Assembly: GCF_011045215.1 (NCBI RefSeq)
Contig: NZ_CP049201.1
DNA from: Escherichia coli
GTDB taxonomy: Bacteria > Pseudomonadota > Gammaproteobacteria > Enterobacterales > Enterobacteriaceae
DNA: 64,000 nt
Direction: 5' to 3' (one strand)
This document shows positions 5,020-64,000 of this stretch, piece by piece; position 1 is the first letter of the stretch, and every line of letters begins with the position of its first letter. The notes under the pieces were generated by a model. That model made no database searches. It worked only from the letters and a program-made list of their open reading frames with translations, and was not told the DNA's origin. The position numbers and the translations under genes were made by a program.

Positions 5020-6906
5020 ATGTCTTTTAGCGAATTTTATCAGCGTTCGATTAACGAACCGGAGCAGTTCTGGGCCGAGCAGGCCCGGCGTATTGACTGG
5101 CAGACGCCCTTTACGCAAACGCTCGATCACAGCAATCCTCCGTTTGCTCGTTGGTTTTGTGAAGGCCGAACCAACTTGTGTCACAACGCTATCGATCGCT
5201 GGCTGGAGAAACAGCCAGAGGCGCTGGCGCTGATTGCCGTCTCTTCGGAAACAGAAGAAGAGCGCACCTTTACCTTTCGTCAGCTGCATGACGAAGTGAA
5301 CGCGGTGGCGTCAATGCTGCGCTCACTGGGCGTGCAGCGTGGCGAACGGGTGCTGGTGTATATGCCGATGATTGCCGAAGCGCATATAACCCTGCTGGCT
5401 TGCGCGCGCATTGGCGCTATTCACTCGGTGGTGTTTGGTGGATTTGCCTCTCATAGCGTGGCGGCGCGAATTGATGATGCTAAACCGGTGCTGATTGTCT
5501 CGGCTGATGCCGGAGCGCGCGGTGGCAAAATCATTCCCTATAAAAAATTGCTCGACGATGCGATAAGTCAGGCGCAGCACCAGCCGCGCCATGTTTTGCT
5601 GGTGGATCGCGGGCTGGCGAAAATGGCGCGCGTCAGCGGGCGGGATGTCGATTTCGCGTCGTTGCGCCATCAACACATCGGCGCGCGGGTACCGGTGGCG
5701 TGGCTGGAATCCAACGAAACCTCCTGCATTCTCTACACCTCCGGCACGACCGGCAAACCTAAAGGCGTGCAGCGCGACGTCGGCGGATATGCGGTGGCGC
5801 TGGCGACCTCGATGGACACCATTTTTGGCGGCAAAGCGGGCGGTGTGTTCTTTTGTGCTTCGGATATCGGCTGGGTGGTGGGGCATTCGTATATCGTCTA
5901 CGCGCCGCTGCTGGCGGGGATGGCGACTATCGTTTACGAAGGATTACCGACCTGGCCGGACTGCGGCGTGTGGTGGAAAATCGTCGAGAAATATCAGGTT
6001 AGCCGGATGTTCTCAGCGCCGACCGCCATTCGCGTGCTGAAAAAATTCCCTACCGCTGAAATTCGCAAACACGATCTCTCGTCGCTGGAAGTACTCTATC
6101 TGGCGGGGGAGCCGCTGGACGAGCCAACCGCCAGTTGGGTAAGCAATACGCTGGATGTGCCGGTTATCGACAACTACTGGCAGACCGAATCCGGCTGGCC
6201 GATTATGGCGATTGCTCGCGGTCTGGACGACAGGCCGACGCGTCTGGGAAGCCCCGGCGTGCCGATGTATGGCTATAACGTGCAGTTGCTTAATGAAGTC
6301 ACCGGCGAACCGTGTGGCGTCAACGAGAAAGGGATGCTGGTGGTGGAAGGGCCGCTGCCGCCGGGCTGTATTCAGACCATCTGGGGCGACGACGACCGCT
6401 TTGTGAAGACTTACTGGTCGCTGTTTTCCCGCCCGGTGTACGCCACCTTTGACTGGGGCATCCGTGACGCTGACGGTTATCACTTTATTCTCGGGCGCAC
6501 TGACGATGTAATTAACGTCGCCGGGCATCGGCTGGGCACGCGCGAGATTGAAGAGAGTATCTCCAGTCATCCGGGCGTTGCCGAAGTGGCGGTGGTTGGG
6601 GTGAAAGATGCGCTGAAAGGGCAGGTGGCGGTGGCGTTTGTCATTCCGAAAGAGAGCGACAGTCTGGAAGACCGCGAGGTGGCGCATTCACAAGAGAACG
6701 CGATTATGGCGCTGGTGGACAGCCAGATTGGCAACTTTGGCCGCCCGGCGCACGTCTGGTTTGTCTCGCAATTGCCAAAAACGCGATCCGGAAAAATGCT
6801 GCGCCGCACGATCCAGGCGATTTGCGAAGGACGCGATCCTGGGGATCTGACGACCATTGATGATCCTGCGTCGTTGGATCAGATCCGCCAGGCGATGGAA
6901 GAGTAA
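5020..6906 (+). CDS. prpE: Propionyl-CoA synthetase
   Basis: 628-aa ORF with an acyl-CoA synthetase AMP-binding motif (YTSGTTGKPKG). Confidence 0.95.
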   Translation: MSFSEFYQRSINEPEQFWAEQARRIDWQTPFTQTLDHSNPPFARWFCEGRTNLCHNAIDRWLEKQPEALALIAVSSETEEERTFTFRQLHDEVNAVASMLRSLGVQRGERVLVYMPMIAEAHITLLACARIGAIHSVVFGGFASHSVAARIDDAKPVLIVSADAGARGGKIIPYKKLLDDAISQAQHQPRHVLLVDRGLAKMARVSGRDVDFASLRHQHIGARVPVAWLESNETSCILYTSGTTGKPKGVQRDVGGYAVALATSMDTIFGGKAGGVFFCASDIGWVVGHSYIVYAPLLAGMATIVYEGLPTWPDCGVWWKIVEKYQVSRMFSAPTAIRVLKKFPTAEIRKHDLSSLEVLYLAGEPLDEPTASWVSNTLDVPVIDNYWQTESGWPIMAIARGLDDRPTRLGSPGVPMYGYNVQLLNEVTGEPCGVNEKGMLVVEGPLPPGCIQTIWGDDDRFVKTYWSLFSRPVYATFDWGIRDADGYHFILGRTDDVINVAGHRLGTREIEESISSHPGVAEVAVVGVKDALKGQVAVAFVIPKESDSLEDREVAHSQENAIMALVDSQIGNFGRPAHVWFVSQLPKTRSGKMLRRTIQAICEGRDPGDLTTIDDPASLDQIRQAMEE

Positions 6907-6954
6907 GGTATTGTCGGATGCGTCGCGTGGCGCATCCGACAGTTGTGCGCAGAT

Positions 6955-7840
6955 GCCTGATGCGACGCTGGCGCGTCTTATCATGCCTACAGGCCTGAAC
7001 CGTAGGTCGGATAAGGCGCTCGCACCGCATCCGACACCGTGCTCAGTGCCTGATGCGACGCAGGCGCGTCTTATCATACCTACAGGCCTGAACCGTAGGT
7101 CGGATAAGGCGCTCGCGGCGCATCCGACACCATGCGCAGATGCCTGATGCGACGCTGATGCGTCTTATCATGCCTACAGGCCTGAACCGTAGGTCGGATA
7201 AGGCGCTCGCGCCGCATCCGACACCATGCGCAGATGCCTGATGCGACGCTGATGCGTCTTATCATGCCTACAGGCCTGAACCGTAGGTCGGATAAGGCGC
7301 TCGCGCCGCATCCGACACCATGCGCCGATGCCTGATGCGACGCAGGCGCGTCTTATCATGCCTACAGGCCTGAACCGTAGGTCGGATAAGGCGCTCGCAC
7401 CGCATCCGACACCGTGCTCAGTGCCTGATGCGACGCTGATGCGTCTTATCATGCCTACAGGCCTGAACCGTAGGTCGGATAAGGCGCTCGCGCCGCATCC
7501 GACACCATGCGCAGATGCCTGATGCGACGCTGATGCGTCTTATCATGCCTACAGGCCTGAACCGTAGGTCGGATAAGGCGCTCGCGCCGCATCCGACACC
7601 ATGCGCCGATGCCTGATGCGACGCTGGCGCGTCTTATCATGCCTACAGGCCTGAACCGTAGGTCGGATAAGGCGCTCGCGCCGCATCCGACACCGTGCGC
7701 AGATGCCTGATACGACGCAGGCGCGTCTTATCATGCCTACAGGCCTGAACCGTAGGTCGGATAAGGCGCTCGCGCCGCATCCGACACCATGCGCCGATGC
7801 CTGATGCGACGCTTACCGCGTCTTATCATGCCTACCCACT
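6955..7840. repeat. Tandem array of REP/BIME units, about 9.5 copies of a ~94-bp unit
   Basis: Unit gcctgatgcgacgc...gtcttatcatgcctacaggcctgaaccgtaggtcggataaggcgctcgcgccgcatccgacacc... recurs with starts near 6955, 7049, 7143, 7237, 7331, 7425, 7519, 7613, 7707 and 7800, with a few point differences between copies. Confidence 0.9.
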
Positions 7841-7905
7841 GTTTTTACACCGATAATTTTCCCCCCACCTTTTTGCACTCATTCATATAAAAAATATATT
7901 TCCCC

Positions 7906-7921
7906 ACGAAAACGATTGCTT
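7906..7921 (+). promoter_or_regulatory. Candidate PurR operator (PUR box) upstream of codBA
   Basis: ACGAAAACGATTGCTT resembles the PUR-box consensus ANGCAAACGTTTNCNT and sits about 70 bp upstream of the codB start. Confidence 0.35.
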
Positions 7922-7987
7922 TTTATCTTCAGATGAATAGAATGCGGCGGATTTTTTGGGTTTCAAACAGCAAAAAGGGGGAATTTC

Positions 7988-9247
7988 GTGTCGCAAGATA
8001 ACAACTTTAGCCAGGGGCCAGTCCCGCAGTCGGCGCGGAAAGGGGTATTGGCATTGACGTTCGTCATGCTGGGATTAACCTTCTTTTCCGCCAGTATGTG
8101 GACCGGCGGCACTCTCGGAACCGGTCTTAGCTATCATGATTTCTTCCTCGCAGTTCTCATCGGCAACCTTCTCCTCGGTATTTACACTTCATTTCTCGGT
8201 TACATTGGCGCAAAAACCGGCCTGACCACTCATCTTCTTGCTCGCTTCTCGTTTGGTGTTAAAGGCTCATGGCTGCCTTCACTGCTGCTGGGCGGCACCC
8301 AGGTTGGCTGGTTTGGCGTCGGTGTGGCGATGTTTGCTATTCCGGTGGGCAAGGCAACCGGGCTGGATATTAATTTGCTGATTGCCGTTTCCGGTTTACT
8401 GATGACCGTCACCGTCTTCTTTGGCATTTCGGCGCTGACAGTTCTTTCGGTGATTGCGGTTCCGGCGATCGCCTGTCTTGGCGGTTATTCCGTGTGGCTG
8501 GCCGTTAACGGCATGGGCGGCCTGGACGCCTTAAAAGCGGTCGTTCCCGCACAACCATTAGATTTCAATGTCGCGCTGGCGCTGGTTGTGGGGTCATTTA
8601 TCAGTGCGGGTACGCTCACCGCCGACTTTGTCCGGTTTGGTCGCAATGCCAAACTGGCGGTGCTGGTGGCGATGGTGGCCTTTTTCCTCGGCAACTCGTT
8701 GATGTTTATTTTCGGTGCAGCGGGCGCTGCGGCACTGGGGATGGCGGATATCTCTGATGTGATGATTGCTCAGGGCCTGCTGTTGCCTGCGATTGTGGTG
8801 CTGGGGCTAAATATCTGGACCACCAACGATAACGCGCTCTATGCGTCGGGTTTAGGTTTCGCCAACATTACCGGGATGTCGAGCAAAACCCTTTCGGTAA
8901 TCAACGGTATTATCGGTACGGTCTGCGCATTATGGCTGTATAACAATTTTGTCGGCTGGTTGACCTTCCTTTCGGCAGCTATTCCTCCGGTGGGTGGCGT
9001 GATCATTGCCGACTATCTGATGAACCGTCGCCGCTATGAGCACTTTGCGACCACGCGTATGATGAGTATCAATTGGGTGGCGATTCTGGCGGTCGCCTTG
9101 GGGATTGCTGCAGGCCACTGGTTACCGGGAATTGTTCCGGTCAACGCGGTATTAGGTGGCGCGCTGAGCTATCTGATCCTTAACCCGATTTTGAATCGTA
9201 AAACGACAGCAGCAATGACGCATGTGGAGGCTAACAGTGTCGAATAA
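7988..9247 (+). CDS. codB: Cytosine permease (NCS1 family)
   Basis: 419-aa ORF starting at a [22 protein letters not shown]..., multi-pass membrane protein. Confidence 0.93.
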
Positions 9248-61807: not shown

Positions 61808-62485
61808 ATGAGTGCGTCGTTGGCGATCCTGACCATCGGCATTGTACCTATGCAGGAAGTTTTGCCGCTCCTGACGGAATACATTGACGAAGATAATATT
61901 TCCCATCATAGCCTGCTGGGGAAGTTAAGTCGTGAAGAAGTGATGGCGGAGTACGCGCCAGAAGCAGGCGAAGACACCATTCTCACATTATTAAATGACA
62001 ACCATCTGGCCCATGTTTCGCGTCGCAAAGTAGAGCGTGACCTGCAAGGTGTGGTTGAAGTGCTCGATAATCAGGGCTACGACGTCATTTTATTAATGAG
62101 TACAGCAAACATTAGTAGTATGACTGCGCGTAATACGATCTTTCTTGAGCCGTCGCGAATATTGCCTCCACTGGTTTCCTCTATTGTTGAAGATCATCAG
62201 GTGGGGGTTATCGTTCCGGTTGAGGAGATGCTGCCCGTTCAGGCGCAAAAATGGCAAATTTTGCAGAAATCGCCGGTATTTTCATTGGGTAACCCCATTC
62301 ATGATTCAGAACAAAAAATCATTGACGCCGGGAAAGAATTACTGGCAAAAGGGGCTGATGTCATCATGCTGGATTGTTTAGGATTTCACCAACGTCATCG
62401 CGATTTACTGCAAAAACAGCTCGATGTTCCTGTCTTGCTGTCTAACGTATTGATTGCACGGCTAGCTGCGGAATTACTGGTGTAA
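61808..62485 (+). CDS. aroM: AroM protein (function unknown, co-transcribed with aroL)
   Basis: 225-aa [29 protein letters not shown]..., with AAGGTGGAAG Shine-Dalgarno. Confidence 0.9.
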
Positions 62486-62841: not shown

Positions 62842-62847
62842 TTCCTC

Positions 62848-62876
62848 GCCTTCCCCTTGAACGGGAGGGCATTTTT
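62848..62876 (+). terminator. Probable rho-independent terminator after ppnP
   Basis: Imperfect 8-bp stem, gccttccc / gggagggc, around loop cttgaac, followed by attttt. Confidence 0.6.
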
Positions 62877-62984
62877 CTGAAATATCCTCTCTTTAACCCA
62901 TAATAATATTTCCTTTGCTGCGATTTTTTCAATTTCCGATATATTCATAATTCATCAAGGTTGATATAAATATCATTGAAGATT

Positions 62985-64000
62985 ATGAATAGAATTAATA
63001 TATTGGTCATCTGTATGGTCGTATTTTTTATGACTGGCAATGCATGTGCCACAGAGTGGATCAGTAGCGAGGAGCTTATCACCTCTGACTTTCATCTTAT
63101 GACGGCAGATGAGCGCAACGTGGTTAAAGCGGCAACCGACGATAGTATGGAAGCTGCTTATATGCTAAAAGATAATATCCGCTGGTATTATCATAATGGT
63201 GACCTATCATTACCCGCTAACTTCAGCAATAAAAATAAACTGGTGGTAAACGGTAATTTAACGATTTCCGGCGATTATGATGATTATCTGTCAGGTAATG
63301 GTCATCTGATTGTATTAGGTAATGTTATTGTCGATAACTTTATTAATCATGATTTCGCGTATGTCAAAGGACAGATGACAGCGAAAGGTTTAGTTTATGC
63401 TGATTACAATGATCATAACTTTGAAGTGATGAAGGGAATTAGTGCGCGAGGCATTATTGTTTCCGATAAAGCAACGCAATTTGAAGTCATTAAAGCTGAA
63501 TTTTATATCAATGAAGATGGAAGTGGTGAAGGATATAACTGGGATGAGAATATTCAAAAAGCCTATTCACTGGTGACTGCCGATCTTTATGATCACACTG
63601 AAATCGAAACCGATAACATTTCCAATGCGTATCCTGACTATGATAGCGTCGCAGACAACATCGTTCAGGGTTTACCGCTTTTTCGAGATAAAGCCGTTCC
63701 TGAAATTAATGAGAAATTAAAATGGATTGAAACGGGGAAACTCGATAATTTCCCAGCGAATAAAATAAAGCATCAAGATCCACTGGTGGCACGTTTTCTG
63801 ACTCATACAGAGAGTTTATCACCCGCCGTTATGCTGCAACTGTTACAGCACCCCGATGACCAGACGCGTGAATCGATGGCGCAGTCCTGGCCCGCTCAAC
63901 AGATGCATTTGCTTACCGATGAATTAATTAAAGATGAGGCTGTTGCCAGAGGGCTGGTTAAAAACAGTAATATTTCCGCCGATGTGAATAAAAAATTAAT
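62985..64000 (+). CDS. Hypothetical secreted protein, 5' part; the ORF is still open at the window end
   Basis: ATG at 62985, then MNRINILVICMVVFFMTGNACATEWISSEEL... with a signal-peptide-like N-terminus. The frame was checked by hand line by line to 64000 and contains no stop (at least 338 codons). I do not recognise the sequence. Confidence 0.5.
   Translation, partial: MNRINILVICMVVFFMTGNACATEWISSEELITSDFHLMTADERNVVKAATDDSMEAAYMLKDNIRWYYHNGDLSLPANFSNKNKLVVNGNLTISGDYDDYLSGNGHLIVLGNVIVDNFINHDFAYVKGQMTAKGLVYADYNDHNFEVMKGISARGIIVSDKATQFEVIKAEFYINEDGSGEGYNWDENIQKAYSLVTADLYDHTEIETDNISNAYPDYDSVADNIVQGLPLFRDKAVPEINEKLKWIETGKLDNFPANKIKHQDPLVARFLTHTESLSPAVMLQLLQHPDDQTRESMAQSWPAQQMHLLTDELIKDEAVARGLVKNSNISADVNKKL

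Follow-up and report, generated by a model that had tools for sequence, protein, structure and literature searches.

An open copy of ykiA, a gene reduced to a remnant in Escherichia coli K-12, and the exported protein it may encode

What gene occupies the site where Escherichia coli K-12 has only a short remnant, and what might its product do? The question is raised by a stretch of 64,000 nucleotides of an E. coli genome (contig NZ_CP049201.1; hereafter the window), which ends, after adrA, proC, yaiI, aroL, yaiA, aroM and ppnP, with a long open reading frame (ORF) at positions 62985-64000 of the plus strand. The ORF starts with ATG, its translation begins MNRINILVICMVVFFMTGNACATEW, and it runs for 338 codons with no stop before the window end. 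Given the local base composition (A 0.32, C 0.18, G 0.22, T 0.29), stops are expected in 6.9% of codons, and the chance probability of 338 open codons is about 3.5e-11. An earlier note, made from the letters of the window, had described a frame open for at least 338 codons and beginning with a signal peptide, and this description holds. Judging from its sequence, the ORF is the 5' 45% of the intact gene ykiA, an uncharacterised gene for a predicted exported protein.

Close relatives of the window carry this identification. The 338 residues differ at two positions from the 759-residue protein of E. coli PapM-32-1 (99.4% protein identity) and at four from the O157 allele. In PapM-32-1 and the other carrier genomes the frame is open up to codon 759, and RefSeq names the product "DUF2773 domain-containing protein". 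The intact gene overlaps there by 4 nt (ATGA) with a 151-codon gene of the SF0329 family, which is followed by rdgC on the opposite strand. The order ppnP, ykiA, SF0329, rdgC is common to the loci, and the K-12 remnant is collinear with the 3' end of the gene, as expected of orthologues. The closest relatives have no early stop, and the ORF is not a piece of another known gene. The gene is AT-rich, with a GC content of 0.36-0.44 against about 0.51 in its flanks.

We searched 5,426 complete E. coli genomes for the gene by megablast. It is present at full length in the slot between ppnP and rdgC in 443 of them (443-446 by count), including PapM-32-1, O157:H7 with EDL933, O55:H7, O145:H28 and scattered others. 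In the non-carrier genomes, the part of the window that follows ppnP is shared only over its first 134-142 nt, and ykiA is deleted or disrupted in about 92% of the complete genomes. Roughly 83% are in a K-12-like state, which consists of a 113-codon C-terminal remnant of ykiA, annotated as 'DUF2773 domain-containing protein, incomplete, missing N-terminus', and of YkiD, a product of 27 residues. Base-level comparison with the full locus resolves this state into two deletions. Deletion 1 removes 1,939 bp, starts 2 nt 5' of the ATG and carries a 5-nt filler. Deletion 2 removes 362 bp, in frame, from the inside of SF0329, between imperfect 10-bp repeats. The remnant is 98% identical in nucleotides to positions 8074-8443 of the full locus (97-98% over the last 113 codons). 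A third state of the locus shares the junction of deletion 1, has lost the remainder of the ykiA remnant and keeps SF0329, and other inactivations include IS1 insertions and one internal stop.

The K-12 remnant (b0392) is thus at the same locus as the window gene, belongs to the same gene and has the same upstream promoter region, but it lacks the start codon and codons 1 to about 646, which encode the signal peptide, head and greater part of the solenoid described below. The window holds the missing 5' part. An intact homologue is found in the same slot in E. whittamii, in Escherichia sp. E1V33 and in another enterobacterium, and because these genes share the syntenic site, the sequence comparison identifies the intact form as the ancestral form of the K-12 remnant. 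The earlier note had mentioned a short remnant gene at this site in K-12, which is the 113-codon ykiA in the ppnP-rdgC slot, and had suggested that the ORF is the intact ancestral form of a decayed gene, which the mapped deletion junctions and the intact syntenic homologues support.

The window contains the following parts of the gene and of its upstream region.

62985-64000, plus strand: codons 1-338 of intact ykiA (759 codons in close relatives); the window end precedes the stop codon.
62985-63053, plus strand: predicted Sec-type signal peptide, residues 1-23, with predicted cleavage between ACA and TEW, from sequence features and conserved in the family.
63186-63512, plus strand: beta-helix 'head', residues 68-176, from strands of an AlphaFold2 (AF2) model with a predicted local distance difference test score (pLDDT) of 90-98; the most conserved part of the family.
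63513-63701, plus strand: linker of short helices ending in the invariant (L/I)FR motif (R234), which packs back on the head in the AF2 model.
63702-64000, plus strand: start of the predicted alpha-solenoid, residues 240-338 of 240-759, from helix pairs of the AF2 model.
62842-62984, plus strand: intergenic region between ppnP and ykiA with the gene's own promoter, putative here and homologous to the K-12 ykiA promoter region.
62848-62878, plus strand: terminator-like hairpin and T-run ending the ppnP transcript, from a pattern scan.

Reading from the start codon, the protein has a basic n-region (MNR), a hydrophobic core (INILVICMVVFFM) and then TGNACA followed by TEW, with an A-x-A cleavage site. 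In the AF2 model, residues 3-16 form a detached helix of low confidence. Of 32 full-length relatives, 22 have a hydrophobic N-terminus, and correction of two starts called too far downstream adds another two; a signal peptide with a conserved (A/T)EW behind it is found in most of the full-length relatives. From these features we strongly infer that YkiA is exported via Sec. The two corrected gene calls, P0005 and P0128 (locus coordinates 6001-8241 and 6001-8283), start too late, and ATGs further upstream in the same frame extend them by typical signal peptides, MLKLNILTGCIIMIGLNSFAQSAQW and MAKVGWFIPLLLTGVFIMASFSAAATPW. We also considered a lipoprotein and rejected it: the residues ahead of Cys21, G-N-A, do not make a lipobox, and this cysteine is absent from the E. 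whittamii-type allele. The syntenic homologue of the other enterobacterium (Logan SRR31227373, 532-2799) begins at the conserved Trp motif, with stops upstream and no signal peptide; export may have been lost in this copy, or the protein may be a cytoplasmic variant. The computed mature YkiA has a mass of 84 kDa, an isoelectric point of 5.0 and no cysteine.

The AF2 model of the full-length protein, built on 32 sequences, has a mean pLDDT of 90.7 and a predicted template modelling (TM) score of 0.78. It strongly suggests a small, bactofilin-like beta-helix head (residues ~60-235) followed by a long alpha-solenoid of LRV/HEAT type, which ends in the 81 residues of DUF2773. The helical, Leu/Gln-rich repeats that had been noticed at the end of the ORF correspond to the start of this solenoid. 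In the family alignment, G72, G90, G106, V110 and G112 of the head are invariant, and H70, D73, Y98, D100, Y141, N142, D143 and D161 nearly so. R234 is invariant in the 32 relatives, with a single beta-bridge at residue 233 in the model, and short relatives end soon after the (L/I)FR motif. DUF2773 (PF10971) is the only Pfam match of the full-length orthologue (residues 679-759, E 4.6e-44). It lies beyond the window end, and its presence in the window copy is presumed from genomes that are 99.8% identical.

Sequence searches place the protein in a family and say little of its activity. The window part alone has no significant match in Pfam, NCBIfam, PADLOC, PHROGs or PDB sequences; neither have residues 1-678 of the full protein in the same resources. 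The head-domain profile gave only chance matches among PDB sequences, neither YkiA nor SF0329 matches PADLOC models at E<=1, and profile searches of the ykiA product found no enzyme, toxin or defence signature. The earlier note could name no family, which stands for the part in the window as far as Pfam and NCBIfam go but not for the full protein, which belongs to the uncharacterised DUF2773/YdbD family. An exhaustive HMMER search returned 174 relatives. About 40 are full-length lineages of 735-820 residues, with 25-35% identity and a conserved architecture, and many share only the N-terminal ~180 residues, which are either duplicated or joined to repeats of the LRV, TPR or BspA-type LRR kind. 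Foldseek comparison of the whole model with the AlphaFold database (AFDB) recovered full-length relatives at TM scores of 0.66-0.82. The distant relatives that have names, in Halopseudomonas and Tahibacter, depend on few AFDB titles, and a profile scan of contigs with a narrow alignment found only two Escherichia species. By sequence, K-12 has a full-length paralogue of YkiA, YdbD (b1407), with 29% identity over 747 residues (BLASTP, E 6e-86). A mobile-element origin was rejected: there were no phage matches, and the 'plasmid' matches were mislabelled chromosomes carrying ydbD. Three such PLSDB entries, NZ_OL790696.1, NZ_CP141089.1 and NZ_CP134663.1, are chromosome-sized E. coli replicons (4.8-4.9 Mb).

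Is a gene so often lost still under selection where it is open? Within E. coli, the ratio of nonsynonymous to synonymous divergence (dN/dS) of ykiA is 0.18-0.28 at informative divergences, against 0-0.10 in the flanks, and ykiA and its flanks have the same dS. The comparison of E. coli with E. whittamii gives a dN of 0.158 and a dS of 1.27, a ratio of 0.125, with a flank dS of 0.26-0.67. Sliding windows of 60 codons between these two species reach a maximum dN/dS of 0.30, and positive selection was not found; with no window above this value, there is no sign of diversifying selection. The lowest dN along the gene is in the beta-helix head, its slowest-evolving part. On these rates, ykiA shows itself to be a real gene under purifying but relaxed selection, which has been inactivated repeatedly.

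As the dS of ykiA against E. whittamii exceeds that of its flanks, its alleles are older than the DNA on either side, a sign of deep divergence between alleles or of their exchange at this locus. In the other enterobacterium (Logan SRR31227373), ppnP, rdgC and SF0329 are 79-88% identical to those of E. coli and the syntenic ykiA homologue only 28%. Along the locus, the synonymous divergence of E. coli from E. whittamii is highest at ykiA and amounts to 0.67 in aroM and ppnP and to 0.26-0.33 in rdgC and mak. Within E. coli, aroM reaches a dS of 0.18 while adjacent genes are nearly identical (aroM to mak, from about position 61808 of the window to 64000 and onward). This pattern points to alleles of high age or to recurrent recombination near the ppnP-rdgC slot.

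When would the gene be expressed? The hairpin after ppnP (62848-62870) has an 8-bp stem with six G-C pairs, followed by ATTTTTCTGA, and such a terminator-like structure implies that the ORF is a separate transcription unit. The first 142 nt past the ppnP stop are 97% identical between full and K-12-like loci. In K-12, the ykiA promoter is activated by the BglJ-RcsB heteromer, as established by a lacZ fusion, rapid amplification of 5' cDNA ends (5'-RACE) and mutagenesis of the binding site (PMC3950696). Several further targets of BglJ-RcsB are envelope or secreted proteins, and the regulon includes the chitinase gene chiA (PMC3950696). By analogy, the intact gene would normally be silent and inducible by BglJ-RcsB.

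Our best guess is that YkiA is a dispensable envelope scaffold or binding protein under BglJ-RcsB control. During ordinary growth the gene would be silent, and the presence of the BglJ-RcsB activator would turn on transcription from its own promoter. The product, exported via Sec, would have a binding or scaffolding role in the cell envelope and no enzymatic one; its solenoid may bind a partner, and its conserved head may be a structural or oligomerising module. For the paralogue YdbD, a 3.9-fold increase of ydbD under overexpressed sigmaE (PMC2731931) offers a link to the envelope. It would act alone, as the gene has no conserved neighbours in five distant contexts, and its role would be accessory and dispensable for E. 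coli, given the ~92% of complete genomes in which it is deleted or disrupted. We give this reading as a whole, from an intact ykiA to an exported, BglJ-RcsB-induced and dispensable binding or scaffold protein of the envelope, a probability of about 0.6. Several points weigh against it. The window stops at codon 338, and the intactness of its copy is deduced from relatives that are 99.8% identical. The BglJ-RcsB data stem from the K-12 remnant. Some relatives, including the syntenic P0130, have no signal peptide, so that not every member of the family would be exported. The conserved polar residues H70, D73, D100, N142, D143, D161 and R234 could form an active or metal-binding site. Finally, the scaffold or binding role is essentially an argument from the fold and from the absence of catalytic signatures.

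The neighbouring SF0329 gene has a history of its own. It is undeleted in 920 genomes, against the 443-446 that carry the big gene, and about 475 E. coli keep it without ykiA. Conversely, SF0329 is cut to about 20 codons in E. whittamii and Escherichia sp. E1V33, which retain the big gene. We found 542 homologues of SF0329, 56-68% identical across phyla, and its confident AF2 model has no fold match. Elsewhere the gene lies among small genes of immunity-island type (SUKH-3, DUF2314, WGR/DUF4240, Macro) or beside TerB, BrxC or helicase genes; no phage, plasmid or PADLOC link of SF0329 was found, nor any linkage to the big gene outside Enterobacteriaceae in the distant contexts examined. YkiD (K-12-like locus 5478-5561, against 8412-8867 in the full locus, both in the numbering of the retrieved loci) consists of the first 11 residues of the 151-residue SF0329 protein, MTQRPWSKLQR, joined to the last 16, KTHNIAALKIIARRSE. 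It has been reported as expressed (PMC6001520). Being the two ends of SF0329 joined by the 362-bp in-frame deletion, it is a gene relic and not an evolved small protein.

These data also bear on other readings of the gene. The ORF might be a decaying, functionless leftover even where it is open: most E. coli have lost or disrupted it, through four or more independent routes (deletions of two kinds, IS1 insertions and an internal stop), and the flanking genes have a dN/dS 3-10 times lower. Yet the 759 codons have stayed open through synonymous saturation, with the low dN/dS given above for E. whittamii, the architecture is conserved in some 40 full-length lineages, and the same base-composition estimate gives a frame of this length a chance of about 3e-24, so we regard a leftover as highly improbable. 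Just as improbable is a toxin-immunity or effector-antidote pair made of the big protein and SF0329. The ATGA overlap makes the two genes look translationally coupled, their pairing recurs in another enterobacterium, and the company that SF0329 keeps elsewhere would fit an immunity gene. But each gene persists alone in one lineage or another, distant relatives of the big gene never adjoin SF0329, and there is no toxin domain, PADLOC or PHROG match or secretion-system marker. Co-evolving partners would show the opposite of what is seen here, an SF0329 well conserved from phylum to phylum and a hypervariable big protein. It is the independent losses and the lack of linkage outside Enterobacteriaceae that make such a pair unlikely. 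A role in resistance to methylglyoxal or other electrophiles might be borrowed from YdbD, which is described as induced by methylglyoxal (PMC2731931) and as possibly involved in methylglyoxal detoxification in PMC13313352, which cites the susceptibility screen of Kim et al. 2007. AFDB fragments of YdbD even bear the name 'protein involved in detoxification of methylglyoxal'. These observations, like that on sigmaE, concern YdbD only, and the annotation is hedged wherever it is cited; at 29% identity, YdbD is without the YDDY and YND motifs of the head, and mature YkiA has no cysteine and a fold unrelated to glyoxalases or reductases. We therefore hold this role to be very unlikely.

Two further readings accept export and differ on what the protein would do, and both seem to us unlikely, if less so than those above. 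The head could be a periplasmic enzyme, for example a carbohydrate-active lyase, hydrolase or epimerase acting on an envelope polymer, with the solenoid as its substrate-binding arm. Its beta-helix carries His, Asp, Asn and Tyr residues that are nearly invariant, together with an invariant Arg; the head evolves more slowly than the rest of the exported protein, and it recurs fused to LRV, TPR and BspA-type LRR repeats. However, it comprises only about 110 residues in 3-4 turns, far below the size of catalytic parallel beta-helices, it has no Pfam, NCBIfam or PDB profile match, many of its conserved positions are glycines or turn residues, as in a structural repeat, and no polysaccharide genes lie nearby. 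Alternatively, YkiA could be a secreted or surface factor, for example a substrate of type II secretion co-regulated with ChiA, in which case exposure to hosts, phages or competitors would explain both its variability and its retention in enterohaemorrhagic E. coli (EHEC) lineages. The Sec signal peptide, the regulon shared with chiA (PMC3950696), the high dS relative to the flanks, the 28% identity of the syntenic copy of a sister genus and the enrichment of carriers in EHEC lineages (O157:H7, O55:H7 and O145:H28 are those named) all agree with this. Against it, no part of the gene has a dN/dS above 0.3, a single ancient deletion that most of the species inherited, or through which it spread, would account for the lineage pattern equally well, and nothing points to secretion past the inner membrane. 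A more speculative reading, to which we give little credence, sees in the head a bactofilin-like oligomerising module for output, and a ligand sensor in the variable arm of repeats, which are LRV here and TPR or LRR in relatives. If true, YkiA and YdbD would represent an unrecognised class of envelope surveillance or scaffolding proteins that assemble in the periplasm once the solenoid has bound a target, such as part of a phage, a foreign protein or an envelope component that is damaged, and the deep allelic divergence would reflect the long-term balancing of recognition specificities.

What, then, does the intact gene add? The gene itself is ordinary and its uncharacterised family was already known: ykiA is annotated in RefSeq and UniProt, has a model in AFDB and a named DUF family, and its K-12 remnant is flagged as a pseudogene. 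Annotated in hundreds of genomes, it is not a new finding, and its discovery value is low. There is a modest value for curation, concerning the ykiA promoter, the YkiD relic and the choice of a family representative. The promoter that BglJ-RcsB activates in K-12 really belongs to a gene of 759 codons for a protein with predicted export. As the full protein survives in O157:H7, O55:H7 and O145:H28, the regulon has a target that is invisible to work on K-12.

How does an envelope scaffold or binding protein of this build compare with known proteins? In the model, the C-terminal ~500 residues form a regular solenoid of two-helix repeats, as do LRV and HEAT proteins such as the LRV protein of A. 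vinelandii (1LRV) and the A subunit of PP2A. Relatives match Pfam LRV, LRV_2 and HEAT_2 (among 32, four hit LRV and LRV_2 at E<=0.001, and 10-11 at E<=0.1), whereas E. coli YkiA has no significant LRV match and reaches HEAT alone, at E 8.5. When the whole model was compared with PDB by Foldseek, only HEAT/ARM solenoids came up, with TM scores of at most 0.36, and at such values the likeness is generic to the fold. Moreover, the known HEAT and LRV proteins are cytoplasmic and none has the head of YkiA. The head in turn resembles bactofilins (PF04519) and the C-terminal beta-helix of MinC in being a small beta-helix of ~100 residues with a short repeating G-x-hydrophobic pattern. The prokaryotic genome annotation pipeline (PGAP) labels YdbD 'bactofilin' or 'polymer-forming cytoskeletal protein'. 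Nevertheless, YkiA has no match to PF04519 at E<=10, none of 32 relatives has one at E<=0.1, and YdbD itself is marginal (E 0.05); bactofilins are cytoplasmic, and YkiA carries an export signal. Sequence comparison thus does not support the 'bactofilin' label as family membership. The likeness to MinC was also tried and rejected: three family members have weak matches to MinC models (E 0.01-0.05; 13-15 bits in NCBIfam, where the cut-off is 273), and when the head profile is aligned with E. coli MinC by hhalign, the probability is 1.5%.

The closest counterpart of YkiA is YdbD, which has a similar length (768 residues), a signal peptide and the same succession of head, solenoid and DUF2773 (E 2.3e-45). 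The O157:H7 copy in AFDB, a 'DUF2773 domain-containing bactofilin' of 770 residues, is YdbD and matches the YkiA model in Foldseek with a TM score of 0.73. YdbD is encoded at another locus, where it is intact in K-12 just upstream of ynbABCD (region NC_000913.3 1475144-1482201). It is an accessory gene as well, found in 3,833 of the 5,426 genomes and often struck by insertion sequence elements. It is very weakly expressed (<1 ppm), yet was scored as fitness-relevant, as is ynbB (bioRxiv 038851). The ynbABCD promoter is another target of BglJ-RcsB (PMC3950696), so that the position of ydbD beside it ties both DUF2773 paralogues to the same silent envelope regulon. In YdbD the consensus motifs of the family head are lost (YDDY is changed to ISTF, and YND is not conserved), whereas YkiA retains both, which makes it the better representative for working out the DUF2773/YdbD family.

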